64,000 nucleotides of DNA, from the NCBI GenBank assembly GCA_964651815.1, contig CAZYWG010000005.1:27053-91052 (forward strand), read 5' to 3'. The first letter of the stretch is position 1. Each line of letters starts with the position of its first letter. Below the pieces are notes generated by a model. The model was not told the DNA's origin. It did not search any database and worked only from the letters and a program-made list of their open reading frames with translations. This DNA is from an uncultured Gammaproteobacteria bacterium. Lineage in GTDB: Bacteria; Patescibacteriota; Microgenomatia; Levybacterales; GWA1-39-11. This document shows, piece by piece, positions 27,610-63,959 of the stretch. Made by a program: the position numbers and the translations under genes.

Positions 27610-28648
27610 AAATTGTTACTAAATCTTTGATGGATTTTTTGACTGTAAATATTTCTGCTTGTTTTAACCCTTTTTCGGAAAGTTCTTGTCTTAATTTTCC
27701 ATCGTTAATAAGTTTAGATATACCATTTGCTATGTCTTTCGAATCAAGTGCATCTACATAATAAACGGCATTTCCCCCAACTTCCTCAAGGCTTCCCTCT
27801 TTTGTAGTTATCACGGGACACCCACAATTCATAGCTTCTAGAACAGGCAATCCAAAACCTTCATAAATTGAAGGCATTACAAGGGCAGAAGCTAAATTGT
27901 AAATTTTTATCAAATCGACATTTGGAACAAAACCAAGCTTAACAAACTGTGTAGTATTTATTTCTCGTAAAACTTTTTTTAAATCATCATTCCATTTGTT
28001 TGAAGAAACATCTGACATTTGACTACCCCAAATTTTTCCCACCATAACTAAGGTGACATTTGTTTTCTTAACAGCTTCAACTAGTCTCGATAAATTTTTA
28101 TTCCATGTTGCATCCCCTACATATAAAATGAAACTCTCGGGCAAATTATATTTTTTTTGAATTTGAGATGTTTTTATTTCGTCTAATTTAAGTTTTTTAA
28201 ACGTTTGGTCTGCAGCGAGATATACAGTCTTCACTTTGTTATCCGATACACCGATTATCCTCTGTATGTCTTTTTTTGAACAATTTGAATCAGTAATAAC
28301 ACAACTCGCTTTTTTTAAAAGTCTTTTTTGAACTTGCCATTTCATGTTACCTTTAAAACCAGCCGGAAAGTGATCAGGGAACGCAATTGGCGTTAAATCA
28401 TGAACAGTAACTACAAATTTTTGGGGAGATTTAAATGGAAGCGTTAAGAAAAAAGGGTCAAAATAAGGATAGTGAATTAAATCAGCATTTTTGGGAAATG
28501 ACTTATCTTCAACAAAAACATACTCGTTTTTTCCATCATACTTTGCAAGGTTTTGAATAAGCATATTAATGTACGCACCAACACCACGAACCTTGTGAGC
28601 AGAATTAGAACTTTTAATCACGGGAGAGATATCTATAGCAATCTTCAT
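27593..28648 (-). CDS. GT4 family glycosyltransferase.
   Basis: EGFGLPVLEAMNCGCPVITT (E-x7-E) and VTLVMVGK. Confidence 0.8.
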   Translation of the reverse strand: MKIAIDISPVIKSSNSAHKVRGVGAYINMLIQNLAKYDGKNEYVFVEDKSFPKNADLIHYPYFDPFFLTLPFKSPQKFVVTVHDLTPIAFPDHFPAGFKGNMKWQVQKRLLKKASCVITDSNCSKKDIQRIIGVSDNKVKTVYLAADQTFKKLKLDEIKTSQIQKKYNLPESFILYVGDATWNKNLSRLVEAVKKTNVTLVMVGKIWGSQMSDVSSNKWNDDLKKVLREINTTQFVKLGFVPNVDLIKIYNLASALVMPSIYEGFGLPVLEAMNCGCPVITTKEGSLEEVGGNAVYYVDALDSKDIANGISKLINDGKLRQELSEKGLKQAEIFTVKKSIKDLVTIYESTT

Positions 28649-30327
28649 TCTTTAATTATATCAATAGTTTTAAAACTTATTAATGCAATAACTAGAATCG
28701 TTCCTAAGAAATATAGATATGATATCTTTTGCACTAACGTACTATCGAGCCATATATTAATTGAGTGATTTCCGGGGGGAATTCTAAGCAAAATTAACCC
28801 TTTCTCATTCATTACTTTTAGATTTTTACCATCTATTTTTGCACTCCAACCGGGAAAATAAGCTGTATTAACTCTTATAATAGATGTTGTATTTAGTATA
28901 GCTTTAAAAGTATATGACGATGTACGCTCAAATATCTCCTTAATATTTCCGTCTCCTGAAGTAATCTCAATTTTATGTTTTGCTTTTTTCGGAATCTGAA
29001 TTAACCACTTTGTGTTAAATACATTTCCTGGACTATTTGTTCCGTCTGTAAAATTAGACCTTGCAAGATAATAGGCATCGTTCCTCTTATGATAAAATGG
29101 TGCCTTTGCATAATTAAGGGTCAATCCCACAGAGATTATAATTAACAAAAGTGATACAAACGTTTGTAATTTTTTCTTTTTCATAAACAAATCGTTGCTA
29201 ACTAACGCTCCGGCAACAAATGAACAAATAAGTATTTCCAAACTTAAAAGCCTCCAAGGAAATTGAAAGTAGTTAATTAGTGGGACATTGCGCCAAAACC
29301 AAAAAGAATATGGAGTCATAAGGAAAAAAACAAAAATAAATAAAGCAATTAAGAACGCCAATAAAATTCTTTGTTTCTTAAGTTTAAACATGAGAAAGAA
29401 GGAGATTATTATCGCAAAAATGTTTACAATACCTATTTGAACTGACATTGGGTTCAACAGATCGTTAGGTGAAAGTCCAAACCCCCATGAAGGTATAATT
29501 AATTGATATATTTCTGAGAAATTATGAGTTATATCAAATATTTGCAGTCCCCCGACGTAACTTGTCTCTAATATTGCTGGTAACCAAAAAGGTGAAGCAA
29601 TTCCAAAACCAAGCGCAATAATTATTCCCAAATTTAGGATTCCATTTCTTTTATTTTCTAGTCGTGTAATGATAAACAACGCATATAAAACAAAGAACAA
29701 GAAAAAGATCAGAGCTAGGATGTTATGTGCCAAAATTAACAAACCCAAAGATAAACAAGACAGAATCATAAAACGTCGCTTTCCCGTTTCACAAAAAGTC
29801 ATGTAACTCCAAAGTAACGCGGGAAATATTCCAAGACTCATCACCTCCCCAACCGAACCTCTTACATAAACATCGACAAAGTGATATGGTGAAAAAGTAT
29901 AGAATGTTGCACATACTACACCACCTAATTCTCCCCAATATTTTCTTGACCATAGATAAAAAAAAATAGATCCGAAAATTGTTGTAATCGCCATATCCAA
30001 TTTAAAAGAATCTATAAATCCAAATCCAATTATGTGAAAAATGCAGGCCAAGTAGTTTGGCAGTGGATAATTATAGGAAAACAAAGGAATTCCAAACCCA
30101 TTGTTGAAGTCCGGAGCCCACCTGGGATATAAAATTCCGTCTGAAAGAACTTTGTAGAATTGTGTAAATCTTAAAACGTGGTATTCTCCATCATGAGTCG
30201 GCGGAATTCCATAATTATGCAAATTGAATACCGCAATAAAGGAAATAATTGTTACTGATGCAAGAAATTTATACTTTGTAAATAACGCCTTCATTATTAT
30301 TGAAAAGTTTTTTAAAGTTTTTATCAA
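28645..30327 (-). CDS. Family B polytopic membrane protein (YfhO-superfamily-like GT-C candidate), paralog B1.
   Basis: N-terminal motif THDGEYHVLRF...LYPRWAPDFNNGFGIPLFSYNYPLPNYL. C-terminal module YFPGWSAKIDGKNL...GLILLRIPPGNHSINIW followed by a TM anchor. The start is ambiguous (Met1 or Met12). Confidence 0.65.
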   Translation of the reverse strand: MIKTLKNFSIIMKALFTKYKFLASVTIISFIAVFNLHNYGIPPTHDGEYHVLRFTQFYKVLSDGILYPRWAPDFNNGFGIPLFSYNYPLPNYLACIFHIIGFGFIDSFKLDMAITTIFGSIFFYLWSRKYWGELGGVVCATFYTFSPYHFVDVYVRGSVGEVMSLGIFPALLWSYMTFCETGKRRFMILSCLSLGLLILAHNILALIFFLFFVLYALFIITRLENKRNGILNLGIIIALGFGIASPFWLPAILETSYVGGLQIFDITHNFSEIYQLIIPSWGFGLSPNDLLNPMSVQIGIVNIFAIIISFFLMFKLKKQRILLAFLIALFIFVFFLMTPYSFWFWRNVPLINYFQFPWRLLSLEILICSFVAGALVSNDLFMKKKKLQTFVSLLLIIISVGLTLNYAKAPFYHKRNDAYYLARSNFTDGTNSPGNVFNTKWLIQIPKKAKHKIEITSGDGNIKEIFERTSSYTFKAILNTTSIIRVNTAYFPGWSAKIDGKNLKVMNEKGLILLRIPPGNHSINIWLDSTLVQKISYLYFLGTILVIALISFKTIDIIKE

Positions 30328-35533: not shown

Positions 35534-35560
35534 GGAATAATAATACCGTTTCTTGACTAA

Positions 35561-46748: not shown

Positions 46749-47452
46749 AAGGCAACTGCACCATCGGTAACGGTATTTAGTTTTTTTCCTTCTTCGTATC
46801 CACGAGGTGTTGTTTTTATCGGAATTTCTTTAATTTTTAAACCTTTTTTTAAAAGCTTGGCAGTAATCTCAGGTTCAAAGTCAAAACGTTTAGAGGAAAG
46901 ATTCATATTTAGCACGGCTTTTCTAGGGAAAAGCTTATAACACGTTTCCATATCTGTGATCCACTGTCCGTACAATACACTTGTGATAAGACTTAAAAAT
47001 CTATTACCAATATAATGAATTAAAAACTGTGGTCTTCTTTCTTCATTTTTAAAGTGAGGAAGCCTATTTAGCCGGGTTCCATAAACAACGTCATTTTTTT
47101 CTTTAATATAGGAAAATAATATGGGGATGTCTGTTGGGTCGTATTCTAAATCGGCATCTTGAATAATAATATAGTCTCCCGTTGCATCATTTATTCCCGT
47201 GCGGACTGCTGCTCCCTTTCCCAAGTTTTCCCCATGCTTTATAAACTTAAAATTACTTGTTTTCGAATTATTTGAGTTTTTGTTAAAAAAACCGGTCTCT
47301 GTAATTTGCTCTACAGTAGAATCACTTGAACCATCATCAACCACAATTACTTCAACCGTAACATTTTTGATTATTACCTTTTTTACACGGTGTAAAACTT
47401 TGGAAATGGTTTTCTCTTCGTTAAAAACCGGAATAATTATTGATAACTTCAT
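46715..47452 (-). CDS. GT2, a DPM1/CsbB/GtrB-like polyprenyl-phosphate sugar synthase.
   Basis: 245 aa with LSIIIPVFNEEKTISKVL...VIVVDDGSSDST, ENLGKGAAVRTGINDATGDYIIIQDADLEYDP and a C-terminal TM-less tail, as in DPM1-like enzymes. Confidence 0.75.
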   Translation of the reverse strand: MKLSIIIPVFNEEKTISKVLHRVKKVIIKNVTVEVIVVDDGSSDSTVEQITETGFFNKNSNNSKTSNFKFIKHGENLGKGAAVRTGINDATGDYIIIQDADLEYDPTDIPILFSYIKEKNDVVYGTRLNRLPHFKNEERRPQFLIHYIGNRFLSLITSVLYGQWITDMETCYKLFPRKAVLNMNLSSKRFDFEPEITAKLLKKGLKIKEIPIKTTPRGYEEGKKLNTVTDGAVALWKLLKYRFVN

Positions 47453-48387
47453 TTATGTAATAACTCGGAATCCTTTTTTCTATATTGTTTTTTTTGTTTT
47501 TTCCTTTTCTGAATTATAGCAGGAATTCTTACAACCGCATAGAAAAATCCAATAAAGAAAGCAGTATCAAAATTAATAATCGCGTGAGCAAAATGATATG
47601 GAAGCCAAAGTGTGTGCGAAATTATTAAATTAGAGTCTGTTATATTCTTCCAAATAAATGTGAATTGATTTCTATAAGCAATTTTTTTAATTTGATTATT
47701 TTTGTAATGTTTTTTAATTGCTCCTTTATCGTGATGGTGCTCAACTACACTTTTTGGTTCAAATAGAATGTTATATCCGGATTTTTGTGCTCTGTAGGAA
47801 AGATCTATGTCTTCCCAATAAAAAGGGTTGTATAACGGGTCAAACCCTCCAATTTCCTCAAATATCTTCCGGCGAATAAGGCTGCTTCCACCGGAAATCC
47901 AAAATGTATCTTTTTTGTCAACTTCTCCCCTAGAATGAACTAGAAAGCCCCGCGACCAGCGAGCAACTCCCCTTCCACGTAAAATTACTTTTTCTTCTTC
48001 AATGCTCTTATCCATTAATCCAACTCCAAAAAGTTCTTCATTTTTAACAAAATGTTTTATTGCATCATCTAAGAAATTTTCTTCTACGACAATATCAGTG
48101 TTCAAAAGAAAAACCAAATCGCTATTACAAGCACTCACGCCGTTGTTAACATTTGATGAAAACCCTAAATTCTTTTTGTTCCTTAACAACCTTAATTTTA
48201 TAGGGTGGGTTTTTTTTATTTTTTCAACAAAAATATTAAGAGCATTGAAATCCTCTTCTTTTGAAAAGTCATCTGTTATAACAATTTGGCCAACATTATA
48301 TTTTGAGATATATTTGATTAAAATCGGGAGATTTTTTTCTATCAAATTAAAACCGTTATAATTAGGAATTACTACATCTATTTTCAT
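47449..48387 (-). CDS. GT2 family glycosyltransferase.
   Basis: IDVVIPNYNGFNLIEKNLPIL; DxD region LLNTDIVVEE; C-terminal FYWEDIDLSYR (GT2 'ED' motif). Confidence 0.75.
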   Translation of the reverse strand: MKIDVVIPNYNGFNLIEKNLPILIKYISKYNVGQIVITDDFSKEEDFNALNIFVEKIKKTHPIKLRLLRNKKNLGFSSNVNNGVSACNSDLVFLLNTDIVVEENFLDDAIKHFVKNEELFGVGLMDKSIEEEKVILRGRGVARWSRGFLVHSRGEVDKKDTFWISGGSSLIRRKIFEEIGGFDPLYNPFYWEDIDLSYRAQKSGYNILFEPKSVVEHHHDKGAIKKHYKNNQIKKIAYRNQFTFIWKNITDSNLIISHTLWLPYHFAHAIINFDTAFFIGFFYAVVRIPAIIQKRKKQKKQYRKKDSELLHK

Positions 48388-50675
48388 AATAATGAGTCAT
48401 AAAATTCTATAGTGTGAGTCCCTGATGGCACTACGATTCCTCGAAAAGTGTAATCTGTTAAATATATTCTACCCGCTTCACCATCTATTTTAACTTTCCA
48501 TGTTGGATAATAAACATCTGTTAAAACCAAAAATCCTTCTCCTTTGTTGGTTGACACAAGTATTATTTTGTTTGCTGAATATTCATTAATTTTTACGAGT
48601 CCTGTTTCCCAGCTTTTTTTAAACCTTGAATCGTTACCCGAATTCTCTACTACGGCTACGTGGTTTAGCAAATTGTTTGGATCGAAAATCGCATTGATCG
48701 CGCTTTGCTTGTCACGAGCAGGTATTGTCGACGAAACAAAAAACGCTCGAGGGAATGCTAAAGTATTTTCATAAACATTTACGTGTCCCTCAGAAAGTAC
48801 AGGTGTTAACTTATCATCATGCAAAATAGAAGACGAAAGCACAAACCTAACTCCTAAGAAATCCGTCAGGCGCGATTTTGTATCTTGCAAAGTTATTATC
48901 CTATTAAATCCAAATGGTGTTGATATATCCGCTTTATTTCTTGAAGTTGCTGAAGCAAACTCACCGTAACGCATTAGATATAATGGATCATATCCATCTA
49001 CGGTTTGTAAATGATACATAACAGAAAAATTAGGTGGTAGAATTTGAGAGTCCGTGCTCATAACACGAAATAAGCCACTCTGGTTTTGTAAATATGATAA
49101 GACGCGAGTGCTCGGAAAGAGATATTCTTTATTTGTAAACGGTTCAAACTTCCAGCCAAAACGAATTAAATCAAAAAAAGTAAGTATCAGCAAAATTGAA
49201 AAAAACAGATAATCAATTTTGGGATTTTTTATTTTGTAGGTAAATCGTAGAATTATAAAAATTACATAAATGACTGAAAAGATAAAAGTAGGCAAAAATA
49301 GATTCTGCCTCGCAACCATTACTTGATCTTGTGTAAATATTCCAAAACTCCCGAACAACACAAATATCCAAAGTCCAATAAATACGAAGCTCGCGCCGGA
49401 AATTAGATAAATTATATTCTTTTTTTGTTTTGTGTAGTAATCAAAACCTAGCGCTGCAAGTACAGCCAATGAAAAATCTATTACAAAAATTAGCCTTGTA
49501 GGTTGTGCTGTAGACAAAAATGGAATATGTAAAACAAATGGAATTTTAGATATTTGAGTGGGTAATGCAAAGATTAACGATATGAGTAGGATCAGAAAGA
49601 ATAATATGGTTTTTTTATCACGCCTGAAAAAAACAGCAAAAAGCGCGGCCAAAAGTGGAAATATTCCTACATATCCAACAAACTCCGCGTAATTCCAAAT
49701 CCCTGTGTAATTTAGCGTTGCGGGATTTCCAAAAAAATCCGGGGCCACAAATTGAACTAAATTTTGCCACGGAATAAACCATCCGGTATTTTTGTAACCT
49801 ATAAGATCGGCGTCTCTTGCTGAAAGAAGAATGAATTGAAGACTAGGATACCATTGGACAAAAGTAATGAGCAAGAACAATGCATTTATAATAATGTAGG
49901 TTAACAATAGTTTGCCTTTATTTTTTTGCTCAAAAAGTCGGACCATAAAATATAATGATGACAAAACATACATATAAAAAAACGTTTGCAAATGTCCTGC
50001 AAAAAATGAAGAAATTAATGTGATAACTAAAATCAAACACCACACCCCCACTTTTTTGCTCATTATTGCTGCTTCTTTATTAATTATTCCTATCGTAATT
50101 TTGTCGATTGATAACAATATTAATGGCAGCCATAACGCAGTATTCAATATATTCCCCCACTCCATCCAGGCAACAAAAAATCCGCTAAAGGAAAACGTTA
50201 TTGCACCTAGTAAACATGCCTCTTTTTTAAGCTTTAAATTTTCAAGATACAAAAACATAAAAAATCCTGCGAGTATTGGCTGAAGAATTATTAAAAACGA
50301 CCATGCATTTTTGAATGGAAGAAAAAAATACAAAAAGTTTAAAGGGTAAAATGCGCTTGATTGAAAATTTGCAAGGAGCGGCGTTCCCGAAAAATTATAT
50401 GGATTCCAGATTGGAAGTTCCAGCTTTTTTCCTGCATCAATCACCAAATTCTTCCACGGATAAGTTTGCCTAACAGGATCTGTTATCAAGAAATTTTTGA
50501 ACGGGATACCTCTTGGATAATTGTTGGCGTAAATATCACGAAATGGATAATAAAGCCCGACAATCGTATCAGAAGGGATTGGTAATAAGTCTGAAATAAT
50601 AGTTTTCTGAAAGTAGAATAGACATGACAAAACTAATAAAAACAAAAATAAATTCTTTTTTATAAAATCAATCAT
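48384..50675 (-). CDS. YfhO-like GT-C membrane glycosyltransferase.
   Basis: 763 aa. N-terminal YYPFRDIY...TYPWKNLVIDAGKKLELPIWNPYNFSGTPLLANFQSSAFYPLNFLYF. C-terminal YYPTWKVKIDGEAGRIYLTDYTFRGIVVPSGTHTIEFY. Confidence 0.65.
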   Translation of the reverse strand: MIDFIKKNLFLFLLVLSCLFYFQKTIISDLLPIPSDTIVGLYYPFRDIYANNYPRGIPFKNFLITDPVRQTYPWKNLVIDAGKKLELPIWNPYNFSGTPLLANFQSSAFYPLNFLYFFLPFKNAWSFLIILQPILAGFFMFLYLENLKLKKEACLLGAITFSFSGFFVAWMEWGNILNTALWLPLILLSIDKITIGIINKEAAIMSKKVGVWCLILVITLISSFFAGHLQTFFYMYVLSSLYFMVRLFEQKNKGKLLLTYIIINALFLLITFVQWYPSLQFILLSARDADLIGYKNTGWFIPWQNLVQFVAPDFFGNPATLNYTGIWNYAEFVGYVGIFPLLAALFAVFFRRDKKTILFFLILLISLIFALPTQISKIPFVLHIPFLSTAQPTRLIFVIDFSLAVLAALGFDYYTKQKKNIIYLISGASFVFIGLWIFVLFGSFGIFTQDQVMVARQNLFLPTFIFSVIYVIFIILRFTYKIKNPKIDYLFFSILLILTFFDLIRFGWKFEPFTNKEYLFPSTRVLSYLQNQSGLFRVMSTDSQILPPNFSVMYHLQTVDGYDPLYLMRYGEFASATSRNKADISTPFGFNRIITLQDTKSRLTDFLGVRFVLSSSILHDDKLTPVLSEGHVNVYENTLAFPRAFFVSSTIPARDKQSAINAIFDPNNLLNHVAVVENSGNDSRFKKSWETGLVKINEYSANKIILVSTNKGEGFLVLTDVYYPTWKVKIDGEAGRIYLTDYTFRGIVVPSGTHTIEFYDSLL

Positions 50676-51883: not shown

Positions 51884-51889
51884 ATTTAT

Positions 51890-52123: not shown

Positions 52124-52283
52124 GAACTCAAAGAAAACACTGAAAATTTGTTTACAGTTGATTGGGATGTTGCCCTTTGTTAGAATTCGAATAATGTCAT
52201 TCCACGAGAATATTCGACTCTCGAGAGAAATCGAAAGAGATATTGAAAAAGATAGATAAACTGACGCTTCATACAAAGACCAA

Positions 52284-52550: not shown

Positions 52551-53283
52551 CCCACAGCTTTGCGTAGGTTATAAATAGTGAAAATGCTTGGTAAATTCCT
52601 TCTATCACGCCTGTAGTTCCATTCTTCCACCCTCCCTGGCCAAAATATGACCCAATAAACTCTGTAATCATGACTCTTGGAAAACGCCACAGGCTCATCT
52701 TAGGATGAGATGATTTTAACCGTAAGTCAGATTCATACTCAGACCACTCATTAGTTTTTGCAACCATTTGCTCTAAATTACGGTGAGTATAATGTAAGAT
52801 AGGCTCTTTTATTGTTGCTAGTCTCCCTTGGACAATTGGTGATTCGTGTACAACGCCCCGCCACTCTTTTAATTTAGACTTTTTAAAAACGCGCCCCACA
52901 CGATCAGCAAAATTCCAATCCTTTCCGTAAAAAAAAGTTTTGCGACGAACCCAAAACCCAACTACTTCAGGATTCTCCCGGGTGTTTTGAATTTTGAGTT
53001 TTAATTCGTGTATAAACTCATTTGTAGCGCGTTCATCGGAATCAATGTAAAAAATCCATTCGTTTTTTGCAACTGACGCAGCCAAATTTCTTTGGTCTGC
53101 AAAATTTCTGAATGTATTCTTGACAATATTTGCTCCTAATTTTTCTGCAATTTCTGGCGTCGAGTCTGTAGAATCATCAATAACAATTATTTCGTCTGCA
53201 AAACTCTTGACAGATTTTATAGCGTCTCCAATTACATCCTCTTCGTTTTTTGAAATTATGAGTACTGAGATTTTTTCTTCCAT
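52528..53283 (-). CDS. GT2 family glycosyltransferase (paralog group with 34751..35533 and 59332..60267).
   Basis: ISVLIISKNEEDVIGDAIKSVKSFADEIIVIDDSTDSTPEIAEKLGANIV and the C-terminal LHYTHRNLEQMVAKTNEW block. Confidence 0.8.
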   Translation of the reverse strand: MEEKISVLIISKNEEDVIGDAIKSVKSFADEIIVIDDSTDSTPEIAEKLGANIVKNTFRNFADQRNLAASVAKNEWIFYIDSDERATNEFIHELKLKIQNTRENPEVVGFWVRRKTFFYGKDWNFADRVGRVFKKSKLKEWRGVVHESPIVQGRLATIKEPILHYTHRNLEQMVAKTNEWSEYESDLRLKSSHPKMSLWRFPRVMITEFIGSYFGQGGWKNGTTGVIEGIYQAFSLFITYAKLWEKQRSNR

Positions 53284-55592
53284 AAATACATTGCAACACT
53301 TACAGTTCCTAGAGCACCTAAAACTGCGAGGGTTAATCCAATTTTAAAGCTTGAAGGATAATAAGTAAATGTTATGAGGTGCTGACCTTCTGGAACTATT
53401 ACTCCTCTAAACGTATAATCAGCTCTGTAAATTTTTGTCGGTTTGCCGTCCACAAAAGCTTCCCACCCTGAATAAAAAGGGTCAGTTAAAACAAGAAGGG
53501 CCCGATTCTTAGTGGTTGTTTGAATGCTAACCCTGTTAGATTCATAAGACTTTATCACTGCATCACCCAGCATATCATTTGATAGAGGAACAATAGGGTT
53601 ATCTTCCAGAACTGCTGTTTTACTTAAATCTAAATCTTTCAGAAATATAGTTTGCAAAATTTCCCTGGTATCCGTAATCTTTTTGTAATTTGAAACTACA
53701 AAAGCACGTTTAAATGCCTTGTTGTTAGTCAAGATTTGATATTTATCATCAGCATATGTCAGTTGGAATTGATCAACCGGATAAGTCCAAAATGGAAAAG
53801 CCCAGATAGCGCGTCCGTCTGCAACTTTGTGAATTATGTATTTTACTCCGAGAAAATTTATAATTCGTCCTGTGTAGACAGCATTTTTTGAGAGGTTAAC
53901 AACAGATCTTTCCGGCGTATGATATTCCCCATCCGGTGCTGCATTGATAAATTCACCATATCTACCAATATACAATGGGTCATATCCTTCTAATCCTCCA
54001 ATTCTAAGTGTAAGTGCTAATTCCTGGCCAAAAGAGCCAAATGCTCTATCATAACTATTTGACCCTGAGATAACCTTTTGAATTGGAACATCTGGATATA
54101 CTAAATTCTTTGGGTCAAAAGGTTGCCACTTTGCAGCAAATCTATAACTATCAAATGCACATATCAAAATTATTAGGACACCGAAAATGGTGATTATTTT
54201 TTTACTCTTTCCAAGTCTTGATAGAATAAATCCAATTAGGAACATTCCAAAGAAAACTGTGGGAAGTTTTAAGTTTGAAAGTGCTGTTGGAATTTGTTCT
54301 ACCGGTATAAAAAGTTTCAGCAAGATTGTTGTCCAAAGTACACCAAAAGTTAATAAAAATGCTGTGCACAAGATTGTAGTTTTGTTAAATTTTTTGTTTT
54401 TAACATCAGACATTAAATTTTCATATCCAAATGCTGCAAGCACAGCAGCTGAAAAACTAAAAATGACGATAACACGACTTGCAGCGCTAGTGGAAAGTAC
54501 TGGAACCCGGGCAGCTACTAATAAGTCCAGAAGAGGTGTTTGAAAAGCAAGTAAAATGGAAATGATAGAACCTAAAGCAAAAAAGATCACGTAAGGATTT
54601 TTTTTCCTAAAACTATTGAAAGCCAGAATTAAAGGGATTAAACCAATGTATGAATTCCACTCTGCGTAATGCCCAAACCAAGCATTACGTGTCACAGGAT
54701 TACCAAATATGTCGGGAGCGAGTAACGTAGGGAAATAGGTCCAGGGAATCACCTCCGTTTTCATAAATAATTGACTTCTGACTGATTGAGCGTATAGCTC
54801 TATTGATGGAAGAAGCTGCGGCGCACAAATTAACAAACCAGTACAAATTGAAATAACGCTTAATAAAGACTGCTCAATTTTTCTTGTCGTCGCGAACTTG
54901 AATAATATATAAGCAGTTGTAAATAACAAAAAGTATAGACTCGTTTGAAAATGGCCTGAAAAAAATGATAATGGAATTGAAGAAGTTAATAATACTGTAA
55001 AATACCATTTTTTTGTTTCATAAAAACGTTCTATAGCAAAAAGTGCGAGCGGTAAATATAAAATTGCATATACCAATGTCCCGTAAGCCATCCAAGTTGT
55101 TATAAATCCACAAAACATAAAAGAAATTGCTGATACTAAACTCGCAACATTTGAAAGCTTTAATGATCTGACAAATAAATAGGTAAAAATACCTGCAAGA
55201 AGCGGCTGAAATAAAATTTGAATACTCCACGCATTAACGAATGGCAAAATAAAATAAATGAAATTAAATGGAGATAGTGCGGCGGACTGATAATTAGCAA
55301 GAAGTGGTGTCCCAGAAAAACTATATTGATTCCACAAAGGGATAGAACCACTTTTCCAAATATCTATTACTAATTTTTTCCAAGGGTAAATTTGACCAAT
55401 TACATCAGGTGTAGCTGTATTTTTTACAAGTCCAGAGAAACTAACATATTCGTTCCAGGGTCCAAAATTTGTGGCAAGATATGTAGAAGGAAATGGAATT
55501 TTTCCGGAAATAAAATAAGGGCTTGAGAAAACAAACCAAATCAAAACAATAACAGCAATAGGCCAGATCTTATTTATTTTTAACATCGACAT
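53256..55592 (-). CDS. YfhO-like GT-C membrane glycosyltransferase.
   Basis: 778 aa. N-terminal IYPWKKLVIDIWKSGSIPLWNQYSFSGTPLLANYQSAALSPFNFIYFILP. C-terminal FYSGWEAFVDGKPTKIYRADYTFRGVIVPEGQHLITFTYYP followed by a TM anchor. Confidence 0.65.
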   Translation of the reverse strand: MSMLKINKIWPIAVIVLIWFVFSSPYFISGKIPFPSTYLATNFGPWNEYVSFSGLVKNTATPDVIGQIYPWKKLVIDIWKSGSIPLWNQYSFSGTPLLANYQSAALSPFNFIYFILPFVNAWSIQILFQPLLAGIFTYLFVRSLKLSNVASLVSAISFMFCGFITTWMAYGTLVYAILYLPLALFAIERFYETKKWYFTVLLTSSIPLSFFSGHFQTSLYFLLFTTAYILFKFATTRKIEQSLLSVISICTGLLICAPQLLPSIELYAQSVRSQLFMKTEVIPWTYFPTLLAPDIFGNPVTRNAWFGHYAEWNSYIGLIPLILAFNSFRKKNPYVIFFALGSIISILLAFQTPLLDLLVAARVPVLSTSAASRVIVIFSFSAAVLAAFGYENLMSDVKNKKFNKTTILCTAFLLTFGVLWTTILLKLFIPVEQIPTALSNLKLPTVFFGMFLIGFILSRLGKSKKIITIFGVLIILICAFDSYRFAAKWQPFDPKNLVYPDVPIQKVISGSNSYDRAFGSFGQELALTLRIGGLEGYDPLYIGRYGEFINAAPDGEYHTPERSVVNLSKNAVYTGRIINFLGVKYIIHKVADGRAIWAFPFWTYPVDQFQLTYADDKYQILTNNKAFKRAFVVSNYKKITDTREILQTIFLKDLDLSKTAVLEDNPIVPLSNDMLGDAVIKSYESNRVSIQTTTKNRALLVLTDPFYSGWEAFVDGKPTKIYRADYTFRGVIVPEGQHLITFTYYPSSFKIGLTLAVLGALGTVSVAMYLWKKKSQYS

Positions 55593-56739: not shown

Positions 56740-58405
56740 AAAGTCTTTTTGGAAAAATTAAAAGTCCAATTATTATAAAAGCCGATACAATAGAAATTAA
56801 TTCCGACAAAATCCTAATTTTTGTATCCTTAAATATAACGTCAACTGTGTGGTTTCCCGAAGTTATAAAATAAGTAATCAAACCACGATTTGCAGGATCT
56901 TGAAACTGAACCTGATCATCTTTAACACCATCAATATAAACTGTCCAATTGGGAAAATATAAAGTGTTCTCACGAATTTCACTATTGGTAGATGCAATTA
57001 TTCGATATTTATGGTGTGTTGAATTTCTTGAAGTCAGATCAATTTTAGCCTGTCCTCCAATTACTTCTGCCTGTGCCGCGGGTTTTTTCTCCATGAATCT
57101 GACTGACCAAATCGGTGCACTTTCCCCAGTATCAGTCGTGCCATTATAAACTCCCGAATAAAAAGATTCAGGTTTTATAATATATCCGATTGGTTGCCAG
57201 TAATTCCATTGAAAGATAAGAATGAAGAGCATGGAAAATAAAAGAAGAATGAATTGATTTTTTTTACTAGTTTTATTAACAACTATGGCTCCCATAACTG
57301 CTGCGGCAAAAATGGCAGTTGCAAGAAATCTCCATGGGAATTGAAATTTTTCAAGAATGCTAAAAGTTTTCCAAACAAAAGTTGAAATGGAAAGCATAAT
57401 AAAAACGCTCCCTAAAAAGTACAGAATAACACTTAAGTATAATATTAGACTTGTCTTTTCTTTATTGAAACGCTTGTAAGCAGTAGCCAAAAATGCCAAG
57501 ACTGCAATCCATTGTAAAAGTCCTAATTGGACAGAAAAACTTCCTGACAATCCATAAATCCAAGACCCATAAAACAAATCTTTTATCTGGACAAAATGGT
57601 AAAACGCCTCATCTTTTGTCACTATATCTCTCAATGTGTATTTACCTTCTAAAAGCGCCGGAACCCAAAAAAAAGCAGCTAAACCAAATCCTAAAATTAA
57701 CGCACTCATAAATTGATACGCAAGGATTTTTCTGTTTTTAGAATTGTAGATTAAATAAACGCCATACAAAGTTATAAATGGTAAAAACATAAGACTCATA
57801 GCGTTATGCGCTAAGATAAGAGCGCAAATTGAAACCGATATTCCGGCAAAATATGCAGAATTAATTTGCTTAAGTCTTGTCACAGATTCAGCGTTATTTG
57901 AACTCTTAAGCATGAAAAATAAAATTAGCGGAGGGAAAATAAAAGCTACTTGTTCTCCAATATCTCCCCTAATATAAAAGTCCACAAATCTATATGGTGC
58001 AAAATTATAAAGAACTGAGCCTATTGTTGCTGCAGTTTCCCCTAAAAATTCATTCAGCCAAAGATACATCGTGATTCCACTTAGAATGAATGCCATACCC
58101 ATAACTAATTTGAATGAATCAACAAAGGAAAATCCCAAAAAATGAAATAATGAAGAAACATAAGAAGGTAAAGGGTAAAGAAACGTTAAAATAGGATGTC
58201 CGTATCCCCAATTTAAATTTCCTGCCCATCGAGGAATAATATTACCCTCTGAAAGTGACAAATAAAAATTAGCTATTCTGGCAACATGATCCTGCCCGTC
58301 GTGGGTGAGTGGAAGACCTGTGTGAAACAGAGGAACAACAGGAATAAAACTGAGAACCAGAATTATAATAATGCCAAAATGCTTTTTAAATAATTTCTCC
58401 AACAT
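56723..58405 (-). CDS. Family B polytopic membrane protein (YfhO-superfamily-like GT-C candidate), paralog B3.
   Basis: THDGQDHVARI...IIPRWAGNLNWGYGHPILTFLYPLPSYV at the N-terminus. YFPNWTVYIDGVKDDQVQFQDPANRGLITYFITSGNHTVDVIF near the C-terminus, followed by a TM anchor. Confidence 0.65.
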   Translation of the reverse strand: MLEKLFKKHFGIIIILVLSFIPVVPLFHTGLPLTHDGQDHVARIANFYLSLSEGNIIPRWAGNLNWGYGHPILTFLYPLPSYVSSLFHFLGFSFVDSFKLVMGMAFILSGITMYLWLNEFLGETAATIGSVLYNFAPYRFVDFYIRGDIGEQVAFIFPPLILFFMLKSSNNAESVTRLKQINSAYFAGISVSICALILAHNAMSLMFLPFITLYGVYLIYNSKNRKILAYQFMSALILGFGLAAFFWVPALLEGKYTLRDIVTKDEAFYHFVQIKDLFYGSWIYGLSGSFSVQLGLLQWIAVLAFLATAYKRFNKEKTSLILYLSVILYFLGSVFIMLSISTFVWKTFSILEKFQFPWRFLATAIFAAAVMGAIVVNKTSKKNQFILLLFSMLFILIFQWNYWQPIGYIIKPESFYSGVYNGTTDTGESAPIWSVRFMEKKPAAQAEVIGGQAKIDLTSRNSTHHKYRIIASTNSEIRENTLYFPNWTVYIDGVKDDQVQFQDPANRGLITYFITSGNHTVDVIFKDTKIRILSELISIVSAFIIIGLLIFPKRLYVTKN

Positions 58406-59335: not shown

Positions 59336-60267
59336 TTTTTGATTTTTGAGGAAGATATTTTTCTTGCAGTTTTTAAAAGTATTTTTTTAAAGGGGTTTTT
59401 TGCGTTATCAATTAAATTTGAGGTAGCCCAATATTTTACCTTTTCTCCCGAGTTTTTTAACTCCTCTTTAACATTTTTCAAGAAAGTTGGTTCGTTAACC
59501 TCTATAAACTTATTTTTCTCCCAAAGTTTGGCAAAAACAACCTCCATATAAAATGCTTGCAGTATTGAAAGAACCAAACCATGTAAACCGTCTCTGAATC
59601 CTTTTTGTAAAAAAAATGTTTTAACAAAATCGTCAACTGGAAATCGGATAGCATCTAAAAAATTGAAATTGTAATCTTTCACAAGATTTTCTGCTTCAAT
59701 ATCAGTATAGTTATTTAGTTTTTTTATGTATTGTGAAATTGAATTGTAATTATTATGTAAAATTGGACTTTCAATTTTTATTGTTTCACCATTTACAGTT
59801 AATGCGTGATGGACCTCGTTTTTTTCAAACTTCCCTTTTCCGCGGCGAAAAAATTTCAACTGATAATCTGGCCACCACATATCACTCTGAATCCATTTAC
59901 CGAATATTATATTTTTGCGTGGAACCCATATACCGCTAACATTATTATTTGTGTCGTCGATTGTTCTTTTTATTTCGTCAGCGAGTTCTTCAGAAATTTG
60001 TTCATCTGCATCCAAGCTTAAAATCCAATCGCCTGAGGCTTTTGAAAAACCAAAATTTTTTTGTAAGTCTATTTCCTGTGGATTATTTTTTTGAGAATAT
60101 ATTTTTTTAGTATATTTTTTGGCAAAATCAAGCGTTTTATCGGAAGATTCATGATCTATAACAATAATCTCATCTGCCAAATTTTCAACAGAAGTAAGGC
60201 AAGAATCAATGTTTTCTTCCTCATTATACGCAGACACAACCACAGATAAAGTGTTTTTTTTGCTCAT
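59332..60267 (-). CDS. GT2 family glycosyltransferase (paralog group with 34751..35533 and 52528..53283).
   Basis: LSVVVSAYNEEENIDSCLTSVENLADEIIVIDHESSDKTLDFAKKY. Confidence 0.8.
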   Translation of the reverse strand: MSKKNTLSVVVSAYNEEENIDSCLTSVENLADEIIVIDHESSDKTLDFAKKYTKKIYSQKNNPQEIDLQKNFGFSKASGDWILSLDADEQISEELADEIKRTIDDTNNNVSGIWVPRKNIIFGKWIQSDMWWPDYQLKFFRRGKGKFEKNEVHHALTVNGETIKIESPILHNNYNSISQYIKKLNNYTDIEAENLVKDYNFNFLDAIRFPVDDFVKTFFLQKGFRDGLHGLVLSILQAFYMEVVFAKLWEKNKFIEVNEPTFLKNVKEELKNSGEKVKYWATSNLIDNAKNPFKKILLKTARKISSSKIKK

Positions 60268-61706
60268 TTTTTGATTATCCGCCTAATATCACTTACTACT
60301 TCTTTCCCTTTAAAGGCGTACATTATACTAAAGTAAATTCCGCCACAAACAGTGCTCATAATAATTAATTCCGGCAGACTTCTTACAAAATAGGCGCAAG
60401 AAAAATATGTGATTATTCCCATTATACCAGCTGATACTATTGGTTGATAAATACTACCCCAAAATTTGAAGTCCACAATTTTTCTTACCAAATGTACTGT
60501 ATATAAAATAGTAAGTGTCACCAAAAATGAGGCAATTGCAACCCCATTGTAACTGTAAAAGTGAATCATAAGGGGTGTTATAATCCATATTAAAATCGTC
60601 CACACAACCATAAGTTGCAGGGTCCATTTAACTTTCCCGTTGGAGTCCAAAACATTAATTAGTATTCCGGAAAGAGAAGATACCATTGCGTTAAGCGAGA
60701 AAAAAACAACAGAAATATACGCACCTTCCCATTTATTATGCCAATGTGGAAAATAACGGATAAGTGACGGCCCCGCAATTATTAATCCTGTCAAAAGAGG
60801 GAACATAATAAGCGCAACAAAAAACAAAGATTTCTCAATTGACAGCCTCAGCATTTTCTTATCATCTTGAAACCTTGCGTAGGTAGAAAAAGTAACACGA
60901 GTCACGCTATCAACAAAGTATCTGTATGGATAAAAAGCAAGGCTTTGGGCAACACCAATAAATCCTATCTGAGCAAAGCTTAAGAACCTCGCCAAAATTA
61001 CCGTTAAAAAATCGTCCTTAATTGTTGCAAGAACGTTTTTTGCTTGGAATTGTAACCCAAATTTCAAATGCACAAGAGACGCCTTATGAACTCCAACCCC
61101 AAATTCCCAAGGTGAAACCAGAAAATAAAATGGAACACTTGAAATACTTGAGACTAAAAACGCCCAAGTATACGCAGTTATTCCAAAACGATTCAAAACC
61201 AAAGTTAAAAGAATAAGATTAAACACTACAGATTCCACAAGTTGTGGAATAACTAGTTTGTGAAAATGAATTTTACGCTCAAGAAGTATTGACGGAATCA
61301 CTTTAAATGAAGAAAGAAAAATTGTAAAGACTAGAGCAAGCAACAATCCGTAGGCATCATTATTTAGTCGCAATAATGAAGAGAGCGGTGACCTTAAAAT
61401 CAGTGTTAAAAAGAATACCCCCCCAGTTAGCGCGGCTTGTAATGTAAAACTTGTGCGCAGATCCTCACGCGTCAATTCTTCCTTTTTTTGGACTAATGCA
61501 GCACCAAAACCAAAATCCGTAAAAAAACTAATGACCCTTTGAATTGCTATAACTACCGTGTATATTCCAACTTGAGCAGGGGTGAAAATACTAAAAATTA
61601 TGATTGAAGTACCTACTGTCAAAACATCAAGAATGACAGTTCTTGAAATAAATGCAACAATCCCCTTTAGTGTTTGCTCAATAATTGAAGAATTAGAATT
61701 TTCCAT
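60264..61706 (-). CDS. MOP-superfamily (Wzx-like) polysaccharide flippase.
   Basis: 480 aa with about 12-14 hydrophobic segments and the typical 'polysaccharide biosynthesis protein' topology. It lies immediately 3' of a DPM1-like GT2. Confidence 0.6.
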   Translation of the reverse strand: MENSNSSIIEQTLKGIVAFISRTVILDVLTVGTSIIIFSIFTPAQVGIYTVVIAIQRVISFFTDFGFGAALVQKKEELTREDLRTSFTLQAALTGGVFFLTLILRSPLSSLLRLNNDAYGLLLALVFTIFLSSFKVIPSILLERKIHFHKLVIPQLVESVVFNLILLTLVLNRFGITAYTWAFLVSSISSVPFYFLVSPWEFGVGVHKASLVHLKFGLQFQAKNVLATIKDDFLTVILARFLSFAQIGFIGVAQSLAFYPYRYFVDSVTRVTFSTYARFQDDKKMLRLSIEKSLFFVALIMFPLLTGLIIAGPSLIRYFPHWHNKWEGAYISVVFFSLNAMVSSLSGILINVLDSNGKVKWTLQLMVVWTILIWIITPLMIHFYSYNGVAIASFLVTLTILYTVHLVRKIVDFKFWGSIYQPIVSAGIMGIITYFSCAYFVRSLPELIIMSTVCGGIYFSIMYAFKGKEVVSDIRRIIKK

Positions 61707-61708: not shown

Positions 61709-62428
61709 TTAAATCCTAGCGTTATGAATATCTGACCACAAAATTAGACTCTCTAAAACTGCCCTGACAACAACAGGAAGATTTGCACCTGTCTGAAGTC
61801 CAAATTGCCTTTGATAATGACTAACTTCAACTTGAGTTATTTTTAATTTTTTTCTTTTTGCTTTTGCCAAAATTTCAGTAGTTACCATTGCGCCCTCCGA
61901 CCTCAAAGGCATAATCTGGCTTAGTGCTCCTCGTGTAAACATCTTAAAACCGCAATCAATATCCTTAAACCAGAATCCAAACAATACAAAATCCCAAATT
62001 TTAAGTAAGTTCATGAGGAGCAATCTTTTTCCAAGATTATGGTCACGCCTTTTTTTTCTAAATCCAATAACCATATCTGAGTTATTAATCTCATCAACAA
62101 ATTTTGTGACCTCTGAAAAATCAAATTGTCCGTCGCCATCAGTAAAAACAATATATTTATATTTTGCAGCATCAAAACCCGCTTTCAGTGCAGCCCCATA
62201 TCCGCGGTTAGGCTTATGAGACACAACTTTTATATTTTTGTTTTGTTTAGCCAAACCTTTCCCTTCCTCAAGGGTACCGTCGGACGACCCATCATCAATT
62301 ATTATTACTTCCCACACATTTGCCACGTTTGGTGCTACAGCAATAGCCTTAGAAACAACTTGACTTACATTTTTCTCCTCATTCCAGAAGGGGAAGAAGA
62401 TGGATAACTCAGGAAGTTTTTTTGCCAT
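61709..62428 (-). CDS. GT2, a DPM1/ArnC/GtrB-like polyprenyl-phosphate sugar synthase.
   Basis: LSIFFPFWNEEKNVSQVV...VIIIDDGSSDGT...HKPNRGYGAALKAGFDAAKYKYIVFTDGDGQFD. The length of 239 aa fits. Confidence 0.75.
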   Translation of the reverse strand: MAKKLPELSIFFPFWNEEKNVSQVVSKAIAVAPNVANVWEVIIIDDGSSDGTLEEGKGLAKQNKNIKVVSHKPNRGYGAALKAGFDAAKYKYIVFTDGDGQFDFSEVTKFVDEINNSDMVIGFRKKRRDHNLGKRLLLMNLLKIWDFVLFGFWFKDIDCGFKMFTRGALSQIMPLRSEGAMVTTEILAKAKRKKLKITQVEVSHYQRQFGLQTGANLPVVVRAVLESLILWSDIHNARI

Positions 62429-63959
62429 AAAAAATATTGGATTTACTTATTATAACAAGGATCATGGCTATAACTCCAACAGTTGATAGCATATCAGAAA
62501 TTATCTCGATTATTGTTTGGGAAGACTTGAACTTAACTGAACGGAGTCCGCCGGGAACTTCTGTAAAAAAACCATTGCTTTCGCTCCTGAGACTAGGATC
62601 AAACTGAAGCTTTTGAGTAGGATCATTAGGCTTTACAAAATTTTTTGGCAAATACTCATCGGAAATTTTGGATGCGGTCCATGTAAGATATTCTGAATTT
62701 GTGTAATAACTAACATTTCTATTTAAATTTCTCTGTGGAACAAATAGTTTCGTATTAAACAATAAAGTTGAAAAAATAACAAGGACAGCCAAAATTATCC
62801 CTAAATTTTTATGATATCTTTCTCCAAAAGACCATACCAAAAATCCAATGAGAAAACTTGTAAATACACCCGCAAAATTTAGGAATCTCCACGGAAATTG
62901 CAAGAAATTCATAAAAGGCGCTTGCCACAAAATTTTTGACGAGGCTTGCATCATAAATATTGAAAAAAATAGAAAACAAAATGACATTAGTGTAATAACC
63001 TTTCTCTCTTTGAGTTTTTTAAAACTTAAAAATAATAGAATTAAAGCCAGAACGACAAATGCAATATTGGATTTTCCAAGCCTAAAGCTCAAACCATCAA
63101 TGCACCCCGGCGCAGAACCCCCAAAACCCCAAGGACTGTCCCAAAGTTGACTAATACATACAAAGTTTTGAGAAAAGTCTGATCCACCAACAAGCTGTGA
63201 CGCAATGTTGGTAAATTTCACCTCGCTAACTGCTGGCACCACATAAAAAGCGGATAGAAGAAATGACAAGAGAAATATTAAACAGTAAGAAATGATAAGA
63301 TTTTTTTTATTTTTCCCAAAGATTAGAGAGAACAGAATAAAAATTCCTAAAAACAACGCTAGCATAAAAGCGGACAGATTGTGTGATAAAACTACTGCAG
63401 AAATAGATAATGATGCTAAAGTAATATATTTTTTAGAAATTGTTTTTTTTTCGATTGAGAAAATTTTAAAAAACGATAAAAATACAATTGGAAGGAAAGC
63501 GTAAGCAAAAATTTCTGCAAGGTCCCCTCTCACATATATATTTACAGCGTGATAAGGAAAGTACAAATAAACGATCGATGCAACTAGACCTGGAATTTTA
63601 CCAAAAAAGTTTTCGGTCAAAAAATACATTGATATCCCCGCAAGTAAAATTCCAATGACAAAAATTATTTTTGTAGAAACTAACGCATCAAATCCTAAGA
63701 TATTAACTAAGCCACCTAAATAATAAGGCAGTACGGAGTAGAAATTAAATATTGGGTAACCAAGTCCATATCCAAGATCTGCAACCCATCTTACTGGAAG
63801 TGCCCCGGATAAAATACTTTTCCCCATTTCAAAAACTCTTGCAACCTGCACGTCATCATGAATTTGGAAAAAACCATTTGAAAAAAAAGGGATGACTGAA
63901 AAAACTGAAAGTACAAAATATAAGATTATATTTATTTTATCTGAAATAATTTTATTCAT
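62409..63959 (-). CDS. Family B polytopic membrane protein (YfhO-superfamily-like GT-C candidate), paralog B4. It is the most divergent of the four.
   Basis: IHDDVQVARVF...LPVRWVADLGYGLGYPIFNFYSVLPYYL. The C-terminus has a TM anchor. The upstream ORF appears to end with a TGA overlapping this ATG, so the operon continues beyond the window. Confidence 0.6.
   Translation of the reverse strand: MNKIISDKINIILYFVLSVFSVIPFFSNGFFQIHDDVQVARVFEMGKSILSGALPVRWVADLGYGLGYPIFNFYSVLPYYLGGLVNILGFDALVSTKIIFVIGILLAGISMYFLTENFFGKIPGLVASIVYLYFPYHAVNIYVRGDLAEIFAYAFLPIVFLSFFKIFSIEKKTISKKYITLASLSISAVVLSHNLSAFMLALFLGIFILFSLIFGKNKKNLIISYCLIFLLSFLLSAFYVVPAVSEVKFTNIASQLVGGSDFSQNFVCISQLWDSPWGFGGSAPGCIDGLSFRLGKSNIAFVVLALILLFLSFKKLKERKVITLMSFCFLFFSIFMMQASSKILWQAPFMNFLQFPWRFLNFAGVFTSFLIGFLVWSFGERYHKNLGIILAVLVIFSTLLFNTKLFVPQRNLNRNVSYYTNSEYLTWTASKISDEYLPKNFVKPNDPTQKLQFDPSLRSESNGFFTEVPGGLRSVKFKSSQTIIEIISDMLSTVGVIAMILVIISKSNIFYGKKTS

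Follow-up and report, generated by a model that had tools for sequence, protein, structure and literature searches.

Four paralogous PF10131 membrane proteins as probable GT-C-fold glycosyltransferases in a conserved Microgenomates surface-glycan locus

Introduction

What do four related membrane proteins contribute to a long block of genes given over to glycan synthesis? The question is raised by a 64,000-nucleotide stretch of contig CAZYWG010000005.1 (assembly GCA_964651815.1, positions 27,053 to 91,052 of the forward strand; Levybacterales within the Patescibacteriota in the GTDB lineage), which as a whole is the window throughout this text and whose first letter is position 1 of all coordinates. 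A first-pass annotation of the window, made from the letters alone, had singled out four genes, family B, that share a conserved N-terminal motif; we name them B1 to B4 in the order of their coordinates. The analysis dealt directly with paralogy, family membership, fold, topology, conservation and synteny. Our best account, to which we give a probability of roughly 0.7, is that B1-B4 are paralogous integral-membrane glycosyltransferases of the GT-C fold that belong to Pfam family PF10131 and that, by analogy, their function is most likely to move a sugar from a polyprenyl-phosphate-sugar to a surface glycan outside the membrane.

28645..30327, minus strand: B1, putative GT-C glycosyltransferase of PF10131, 560 aa as listed, PF10131 score 45.6 bits
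45099..46748, minus strand: B2, PF10131 paralog, 549 aa, 50.3 bits
56723..58405, minus strand: B3, PF10131 paralog, the one that was modelled, 560 aa, 40.9 bits
62409..63959, minus strand: B4, PF10131 paralog, the most divergent of the four, 516 aa, 64.8 bits

Four paralogs with a shared N-terminal motif

The description of four paralogs with a common N-terminal motif is borne out. The open reading frames (ORFs) agree exactly, the proteins align end to end at 27-33% pairwise identity with 53 invariant columns in the four-way alignment, and BLASTP between pairs gave E-values of 1.8e-40 to 8.5e-103. The start of B1, listed as TTG at 30327, is the one boundary that we would move: ATG at 30294, giving 549 aa, is the likelier true start, because a database protein identical to B1 (P0001, 549 aa, 100% identity) begins there.

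A regular expression for the motif, D-x(2-4)-[HQ]V-x-R-x(10-20)-[PV]RW[AV]-x(3-4)-[NG]-x-G-x-G-x-P, was run on the six-frame translation of the window and matched exactly four times in its whole length, once in each B gene:

30085-30192, minus strand: motif of B1
46518-46625, minus strand: motif of B2
58193-58300, minus strand: motif of B3, in the first extracytoplasmic loop (EL1), DGQDHVAR...IPRWAGNLNWGYGHP; codon of the invariant Asp36 at 58298-58300
63753-63857, minus strand: motif of B4

The Asp, the Arg, Arg-Trp, G-x-P and L-P-x-Y are invariant in the four-way alignment, and "nearly invariant", the wording of the first-pass annotation, is right for the motif as a whole, with substitutions confined to B2 and B4. 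In B2 the first His is replaced by Gln; in B4 the second His has become Gln, Pro-Arg-Trp has become Val-Arg-Trp and Tyr-Pro-Leu-Pro has become Ser-Val-Leu-Pro. The C-terminal outer domain of B4 is also short by about 45 residues (gap at alignment columns 449-498).

A hidden Markov model (HMM) built from B1-B4 picked up none of the window's other 48 ORFs as a strong member. Hidden family-B members elsewhere in the window were considered and rejected on these scores, which were strong for the four only, weak for two YfhO ORFs and marginal for a 1127-aa ORF.

Family assignment and fold

Two Pfam families, PF10131 and the YfhO family PF09586, had been proposed as tests of what family B is, and the former proved correct. 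Set against the gathering thresholds for whole-protein scores (26.4 bits for PF10131, 28.5 bits for PF09586), all four proteins exceed that of PF10131 (PTPS_related) with the scores listed above, and none of them matches PF09586 at E <= 0.1 in the Pfam scan. PF10131 is placed in the GT-C clan (CL0111) with "function unknown" (PMC7801869). It is a large and already catalogued family to which B1-B4 add new members, since a profile search returned more than 1000 homologs, all assigned to PF10131, and an exhaustive HMMER scan counted 17,581 representatives at 50% identity (E <= 1e-3). Named homologs are called "6-pyruvoyl-tetrahydropterin synthase-related protein", hypothetical protein or uncharacterized membrane protein; few carry source names, and the organisms named are Levybacteria, Parcubacteria or Patescibacteria-group metagenome-assembled genomes (MAGs). 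NCBIfam holds no family for B3. The database name of PF10131 is misleading; B1-B4 contain no 6-pyruvoyl-tetrahydropterin synthase (PTPS) catalytic domain, PF10131 being the only family above its gathering score and the other Pfam matches being weak, sub-threshold and none of them PTPS.

The multi-helix membrane core of the model can be superposed on solved GT-C enzymes. The values listed for the structural comparison were 22.6 for AglB, 21.4 for Pmt4, 20.1 for AftD, 19.6 for AftA, 19.5 for STT3B, 18.8 for ALG12, 18.1 for ArnT and 17.0 for PglB, and Foldseek returned the same set of GT-C structures. The acidic motif that marks GT-C enzymes (DxD, DxE, DDx or DxxD in the first extracytoplasmic loop after the first transmembrane (TM) helix) is likewise present, 8-10 residues past TM1.

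Topology and conserved outer-face residues

The layout of B3 was derived from the model helices together with a positive-inside count of loop charges. The N-terminus is predicted to be cytoplasmic, TM1 (residues 10-27) leads into EL1 (28-93, about 65 residues), ten more TM helices reach to about residue 398, and an outer segment (399-528) precedes the last TM helix (529-550). With these 12 helices and with loop charges that obey the positive-inside rule, the earlier description of polytopic proteins of 516-560 aa stands. Within the outer segment the model places a small domain:

56831..57070, minus strand: extracytoplasmic beta-sandwich of B3, residues 446-525, between TM11 and the C-terminal TM anchor

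Its best structural match is the outer domain of AftD, followed, weakly, by accessory domains of carbohydrate enzymes, and on the model it is a possible acceptor-glycan binding module.

Conservation was assessed in 132 relatives from related loci, in B3 numbering. D36, R43, G69, G147, P249 and G295 are kept in all 132, and H35, R59, P71, R146, E151, H200, N201, E253, W358 and R359 in at least 95% of them; given the positive-inside loop charges, every one of these residues lies on the outer side. The EL1 Asp is always accompanied, no more than 3 positions on, by a second acidic residue (DGE in B1 and B2, DGQD in B3, DD in B4). These acidic pairs correspond to the "modified DxD" forms reported in GT-C enzymes; the Asp residues at the equivalent place in the GtlB loop are essential (PMC5836110). 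The first-pass annotation had taken the motif to indicate a catalytic or metal/phosphate-binding site. Because of the modified DxD forms, the GtlB Asp and the alignment of the EL1 Asp with an Asp of PMT_2 proteins (below), this reading is well founded as an inference and consistent with an outer-face site, and the EL1 Asp is a candidate active-site residue.

The same residues bear on a quite different idea, that B1-B4 are non-catalytic scaffolds of the GT-C fold, like PIG-U/GAB1 in the glycosylphosphatidylinositol (GPI) transamidase, or that they have a pterin-related role, as the database name hints. With the EL1 Asp and the outward-facing charged residues invariant in the 132 relatives, a PTPS catalytic domain missing and a genomic context that is purely glycan synthesis, we find this scarcely credible.

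Kinship with YfhO and PMT_2

Two further genes of the window encode larger proteins of the YfhO family:

48384..50675, minus strand: YfhO-family GT-C, 763 aa; PF09586 97.5 bits; family-B HMM E 4.5e-6; hhalign probability 88%
53256..55592, minus strand: YfhO-family GT-C, 778 aa; PF09586 83.7 bits; family-B HMM E 6e-4

That family B is a divergent branch of the YfhO superfamily is right in the sense of remote homology combined with a common architecture. These two ORFs were the only other window proteins found with the family-B HMM; hhalign aligned family B with YfhO across the TM core (probability 88%, E 3e-6); and in HMMER a motif from the C-terminal beta-domain of family B, 'vYFPgWkvkiDGk...RG...vP.G.H', aligns with the outer domain near the C-terminus of both. 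The two families have in common a layout in which TM1 leads to a long outer loop bearing the Asp, then to a TM bundle and to an outer domain before the final TM helix, and in YfhO a large outer loop lies between the last two helices (PMC5836110). The likeness of the N-terminal segments had been overdrawn. When the six N-termini (B1-B4 and the two YfhO ORFs) are aligned, D, W, G-x-P and L are invariant, so that the proposed P-x-W...Y-P-L segment is real, but thinner than claimed, since 'YPL' does not align. Of the acidic residues, the EL1 Asp alone is invariant across family B and the two YfhO ORFs.

Remote homology extends to PMT_2. For family B against the seven PMT_2 paralogs of the window, hhalign gave a probability of 95.3% (E 2.3e-8), and it pairs the family-B Asp with the invariant Asp (D38) of the PMT_2 'DE' motif.

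Could B1-B4 then be plain YfhO (PF09586) members that Pfam under-detects, with a function in teichoic-acid glycosylation? Their homology to the YfhO ORFs in the TM core and C-terminal motif and their identical architecture would fit, and many close homologs have a precomputed PF09586 match beside PF10131. Yet all of B1-B4 pass PF10131 and PF09586 matches none of them at E <= 0.1, and the YfhO ORFs are longer by about 220 residues. Genuine YfhO genes also stand in the same locus at conserved positions of their own, which points to distinct lineages, and no teichoic-acid synthesis genes were recognised in the window. We therefore give this explanation little credence. Because remote homology and a common layout go together with coexistence at separate conserved positions, family B is, on the sequence comparisons, best described as a compact sister lineage of YfhO and not a member of it.

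Gene neighbourhood and candidate donor pathway

The window has about 33% G+C, and nearly all of its ORFs lie on the minus strand. Glycan biosynthesis runs throughout, with 11 GT2, 4 GT4, 7 PMT_2, 2 YfhO, 1 MptA_B-family and the four family-B genes (about 29 recognisable glycosyltransferases) beside two Wzx-type flippases, epimerases/dehydratases, RmlD, a nucleotidyltransferase, acetyl/acyltransferases, methyltransferases and a carbamoyltransferase. Along the direction of transcription the order is B4 - GT2 - Wzx - GT2 - GT2 - B3 - membrane protein - YfhO - GT2, then, after a gap, GT4 - YfhO - GT2 - GT2 - B2 - six PMT_2 - GT2 - epimerase, and then DUF5667 - MptA_B - membrane protein - B1 - GT4 - Wzx - GT2 - GT4 - PMT_2 and onward. 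The genes closest to a possible donor pathway are these:

61709..62428, minus strand: GT2 of the polyprenyl-phosphate-sugar synthase type, 239 aa, directly downstream of B4; proposed donor maker
46715..47452, minus strand: GT2 of the polyprenyl-phosphate-sugar synthase type, 245 aa, directly upstream of B2 and overlapping it
25608..26366, minus strand: third GT2, polyprenyl-phosphate-synthase-like (NCBIfam ArnC, PpgS, PgfS), three genes downstream of B1
60264..61706, minus strand: Wzx-type flippase (Polysacc_synt_3), PF13440 148.6 bits, two genes downstream of B4
26350..27609, minus strand: second Wzx-type flippase, PF13440 and PF01943, two genes downstream of B1

The GT2 proteins adjoining B4 and B2 are short and soluble. 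The best PDB sequence matches of the first are ArnC (6.7e-15), GtrB sll0501 and PfDPMS, and the second matches ArnC (2e-14), PfDPMS (7.5e-14) and GtrB (1.2e-13); in NCBIfam the first is closest to AglJ, PgaC/IcaA, PgfS, ArnC and PpgS and the second to AglJ, PgfS, ArnC and PpgS, all below the equivalog cut-offs. ArnC, GtrB, Dol-P-Man synthase (DPMS), AglJ, PgfS and PpgS are all enzymes that make polyprenyl-phosphate-sugars. The GT2 beside B4 has no C-terminal TM domain and a single borderline hydropathy segment (136-154). The GT2 beside B2 overlaps that gene by 34 nt, and six tandem PMT_2 genes come after B2.

A GT-A enzyme, a flippase and a GT-C enzyme together have been described under the name "multi-component transmembrane glycosylation system" (PMC8035078), and where the GT-C of such a system is of the YfhO type, it modifies teichoic acids or Ser/Thr-rich stretches of proteins (PMC5836110, PMC12041528). 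Candidate counterparts stand near family B, with ArnC/GtrB/DPMS/PgfS/AglJ/PpgS-like GT2s adjoining B4 and B2 and Wzx-type genes two genes from B4 and from B1. From the fold and the adjacent ArnC/DPMS/GtrB-like GT2 genes we infer a lipid-phosphate-linked sugar donor for family B.

Wzx-type flippases classically move polyprenyl-diphosphate (polyprenyl-PP) oligosaccharides. B1-B4 might instead be en-bloc transferases, similar to an oligosaccharyltransferase (OST), a ligase or a polymerase, that pass such Wzx-flipped oligosaccharides to a protein or polymer; the two flippases lie close to B4 and B1, adjacent GT4 genes could build a lipid-PP-linked unit, OST structures are among the structural matches, and the Pfam scans of the window detected no Wzy or O-antigen-ligase family. 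Against this, the OST signature WWD, or indeed any WW, is absent from all of B1-B4, and their outer domain is a beta-sandwich segment of about 125 residues as opposed to the large C-terminal domain of OSTs. The GT2s adjoining B4 and B2 resemble ArnC, DPMS and GtrB, the nearest sequence kin of family B, YfhO and PMT_2, use polyprenyl-phosphate-monosaccharides (PMC8035078, PMC12041528), and several unassigned polytopic proteins of the window could be the missing polymerase. En-bloc transfer therefore seems improbable to us.

A conserved locus in Microgenomates

A comparative scan with one genome per species yielded 283 relatives, the best 80 of which come from Levybacteria, Gottesmanbacteria, Roizmanbacteria and unclassified Patescibacteria MAGs. 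Two blocks recur: PMT_2 array - B - GT2 - epimerase - DUF5667 - MptA_B - (membrane protein) - B1 - GT4 - Wzx - GT2 - GT4 - PMT_2, and B - B4 - GT2 - Wzx - GT2 - GT2 - B3 - (membrane protein) - YfhO - GT2 - GT4 - YfhO - GT2 - GT2 - (B2). The order B4 - GT2 - Wzx is also kept in other genomes, and B1 - GT4 - Wzx - GT2 is kept in most of the related loci compared, with GT4 directly after B1 in 44 cases; the conserved neighbours of the B1 orthogroup are MptA_B upstream and GT4 downstream. PMT_2 arrays of 2-6 genes stand before the same GT2 - epimerase block in most related loci. Clustering put B1-B4 each in a separate group with its own neighbours, the nearest orthologs being 41-60% identical; B2 is the rarest subtype, its nearest relative among the compared loci being 41% identical. 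Given this separation, the duplications within family B are old, each gene is an ortholog of a distinct subfamily at a fixed position, and each paralog presumably has its own job.

The first-pass annotation had seen every B gene at the head or tail of a block of GT2 genes and had read the pattern as repeated modules. The first observation stands in part, as B4 and B2 adjoin GT2 genes and B3 comes after two, but the neighbours of B1 are an unassigned membrane protein and a GT4. The second does not survive the comparison, in which the gene order is old and conserved and resembles one long assembly line, not a recent duplication of modules.

On contigs with B4 the locus runs about 8 kb past the end of the window, in the order def (opposite strand), then GT2 - MptA_B - PMT_2 - YfhO - 521-aa protein - B4. 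Here def is a divergent peptide deformylase gene, after which the locus starts. The 521-aa protein (L082:6762-8327) is a fifth family-B paralog (hhalign probability 100%, E 8e-60; no precomputed Pfam match) with the motif TDDG...R...PVRF as against HDG...R...PRW; it lies directly upstream of B4, and its last codons fall within the window at about 63956-64000. The window is thus most of a surface-glycan superlocus of about 70 kb that is conserved in Microgenomates, with the B genes at fixed positions. Literature searches for a described glycan locus in Microgenomates or the candidate phyla radiation (CPR) found nothing relevant.

Family-B content varies between genomes: in 39 related loci (L003, L011, L013 and others) the PMT_2 array and the GT2 are separated by a family-B gene that is about 50% identical to B3; the window (34751-36844) lacks that gene beside its GT2 at 34751-35533 and has B2 ahead of the array instead. 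Four predicted proteins, P0121 (1116 aa), P0122 (1093 aa), P0123 (3329 aa) and P0133 (1670 aa), contain 2-6 family-B-length matches each, and may be either real tandem fusions or neighbours merged by gene calling (for example by read-through under an alternative genetic code). Many MAG records with the locus (L002, L004, L006-L009 and others) bear the title 'uncultured Gammaproteobacteria bacterium'; as the synteny is near-identical to that of Levybacteria and Gottesmanbacteria records, the taxonomy in these titles looks like a placeholder or an error.

Proposed function

We hypothesize a three-step route. Neighbouring ArnC/GtrB/DPMS-like GT2s would load a sugar onto polyprenyl phosphate in the cytoplasm, the lipid-sugar would be flipped across the membrane, and a family-B enzyme would then add one specific sugar or linkage to a growing surface glycan or glycoconjugate outside. 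In such an enzyme the EL1 Asp may act as the catalytic base, the cluster of Arg, His and Glu residues may hold the lipid phosphate, perhaps together with a metal, and the acceptor may be held with the help of the beta-sandwich.

Several findings weigh against assigning B1-B4 to the glycosyltransferases and against this route. The PF10131 match of B1-B4 spans the N-terminal half of the model alone (about 1-316 of 621), because of which we class them as a short, divergent subtype of the family. Literature searches on PF10131/PTPS_related brought up only the TMTC paper and an unrelated transcriptome study and found no member with tested activity, and PDB searches with family-B profiles found no meaningful solved structure related by sequence; a PDB sequence search with a YfhO-like ORF likewise returned nothing meaningful. 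Haloferax AglS, a Dol-P-Man mannosyltransferase, might be a PF10131 member, and no argument here draws on it. The GT2 matches to ArnC, DPMS and GtrB types are far below the NCBIfam equivalog cut-offs, and neither B1 nor B3 directly adjoins such a GT2 (the one near B1 is three genes off and B3 has none adjacent). No GtrA-type flippase was recognised in the window, its flippases being Wzx-type. Finally, the donor type, the acceptor and the catalytic roles of the residues are read from context and analogy.

With the same donor and chemistry, the acceptor could be a protein. As O-glycosyltransferases, B1-B4 would modify Ser/Thr-rich regions of surface, S-layer or pilus proteins, much as in streptococci, where the YfhO-family enzymes PgtC2 and PgfM1 use lipid-sugars made by GtrB/PgfS to glycosylate disordered, Ser/Thr-rich parts of surface proteins (PMC12041528); GT2s of the window score 64 and 78 bits on the PgfS model, and PMT_2 relatives are abundant in the locus. 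About 29 glycosyltransferases together with sugar-nucleotide modifying enzymes fit a complex polymer better, however, and the fixed slot of each paralog suggests successive linkage-specific steps. The beta-sandwich resembles, if weakly, accessory domains of carbohydrate enzymes, and no obvious Ser/Thr-rich acceptor gene was noticed in the window, where no systematic search for one was made. We consider a protein acceptor unlikely.

On a broader reading, the whole superlocus may be viewed as an extracytoplasmic assembly line. It would bring together at least 14, and possibly 17 or more, GT-Cs that extend a glycan step by step, with linkage-specific PF10131 paralogs, expanded in CPR bacteria, helping to build an undescribed major envelope glycopolymer. 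The count comprises 4-5 PF10131, 2-3 YfhO, 7-8 PMT_2 and 1-2 MptA_B proteins plus three undetected candidates. We offer this broader picture only tentatively; if true, its logic would be comparable to that of mycobacterial lipoarabinomannan (LAM) and arabinogalactan synthesis or of N-glycan extension in the lumen of the endoplasmic reticulum.

Comparison with known systems

PF10131 at large and B1-B4 share the same family assignment, and B1-B4 are distinguished by a length of about 550 aa and by 4-5 positionally fixed paralogs per locus. The YfhO family includes B. subtilis and S. aureus YfhO (transfer of N-acetylglucosamine to lipoteichoic acid), Listeria YfhO (wall teichoic acid) and the streptococcal PgtC2 and PgfM1 (protein O-glycosylation). 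YfhO systems and family B have in common a partner GT2 of the CsbB/GtrB/PgfS-like kind and a flippase, whereas family B is the shorter of the two by the margin given above, has a much smaller outer domain and carries its own EL1 signature, HDG-x2-HV-x-R...PRW. In contrast to GT-Cs of the PMT_2/GT39-GT83 type (PMT, ArnT, GtlB, GacL), family B has no PMT_2 or PMT Pfam match, shows PRW...N-G-x-G-x-P...YPLP instead of the HPPL-type motif, and possesses a C-terminal beta-sandwich and a terminal TM helix, both of which those enzymes lack. The OST enzymes AglB, STT3 and PglB differ from it by the WWDxG motif and the OST-type C-terminal domain, neither of which family B has, and identity is 10-14%, with no sequence-level match. 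The mycobacterial GT-C set (AftA/AftB/AftD, EmbA-C, MptA/MptB, PimE) follows a similar logic, but the families and the phylum differ and no sequence-level relation is seen.

This context gives PF10131 a concrete hypothesis, that of an outward-facing GT-C transferase fed by neighbouring lipid-phosphate-sugar synthases, and singles out D36, R43, R59, R146, E151, H200, N201 and R359 as residues for mutation. It also indicates that ultra-small Microgenomates with few biosynthetic pathways give a conserved block of about 70 kb, with unusually many GT-Cs, to the synthesis of surface glycan, which bears on envelope building and host contact in episymbiotic or free-living CPR cells. Current understanding is not overturned; an annotation is refined and an uncharacterised envelope polymer is pointed to.

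Other membrane proteins and minor features

The six head-to-tail PMT_2 genes (PF13231; 35561-45102) have a mutual identity of 18-35%, and the seventh lies at 23148-24479. Between B3 and YfhO, in the window and in several other genomes, stands a polytopic protein of 389 aa (55570-56739) that has no Pfam match and shows 'IIPDETFEAFAGG' right after TM1 and 'HPPLGRY' 20 residues on. We take these to be the DE and HPPL signatures associated with PMT/ArnT-type GT-C enzymes, and on its sequence the protein is probably another undetected GT-C.

Two unassigned proteins, at 10612-13995 (1127 aa) and 2-2041 (679 aa), are mutual paralogs (28% over 420 aa), each with about 10 TM helices, an extensive outer region and a TM helix at the C-terminus. 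Family B, from EL1 to TM4, aligns weakly with the N-terminus of the 1127-aa protein, which has an Asp in the place of the HDG motif (BLASTP 1e-7 to B4; hhalign with family B E 2.9e-4, probability 40%), and the 679-aa protein has a sub-threshold GT-C_AftD match. Both may, from these similarities, be further distant GT-Cs. Two other polytopic proteins, at 30269-32104 (611 aa, 12 TM) and 2899-4551 (550 aa, 11 TM), have no family assignment, and because the window has two Wzx flippases yet no recognisable Wzy or ligase, they are candidates for a Wzy polymerase or ligase role. The five large unassigned membrane proteins have no Pfam assignment even at E <= 1, and an ORF at 10299-10679 (126 aa, 4 TM) has no Pfam match either.

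The protein at 32104-33216 (370 aa) carries a precomputed PF26314 MptA_B_family match and has no match in our Pfam scan at E <= 1; the PF26314 model is probably newer than the release scanned. In 39 related loci the MptA_B gene stands directly before B1, and in the window the 611-aa membrane protein intervenes. The DUF5667 protein (33229-33807, 192 aa) has one N-terminal TM helix and a charged helical outer part, and in almost every related locus its gene is a fixed part of the block epimerase - DUF5667 - MptA_B - B1; the protein might regulate chain length or handle the acceptor.

In the family-B region a single intergenic gap is of any size, 51752-52528, and it carries on the plus strand an ORF for a 77-aa DUF5652 protein with two TM helices (51890-52123), and a promoter/terminator scan of the gap gave matches no better than shuffled sequence. 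This ORF and a class-I methyltransferase gene at 2158-2892 are the only convincing plus-strand genes. A second class-I methyltransferase lies at 17465-18187, the window also has an FkbM methyltransferase (20083-20814), a carbamoyltransferase (4555-6357) and two hexapeptide acyltransferases (9696-10298 and 20817-21383), and the presence of these carbamoyl-, methyl- and acyltransferase genes indicates that the glycan bears carbamoyl, methyl and acyl decorations.

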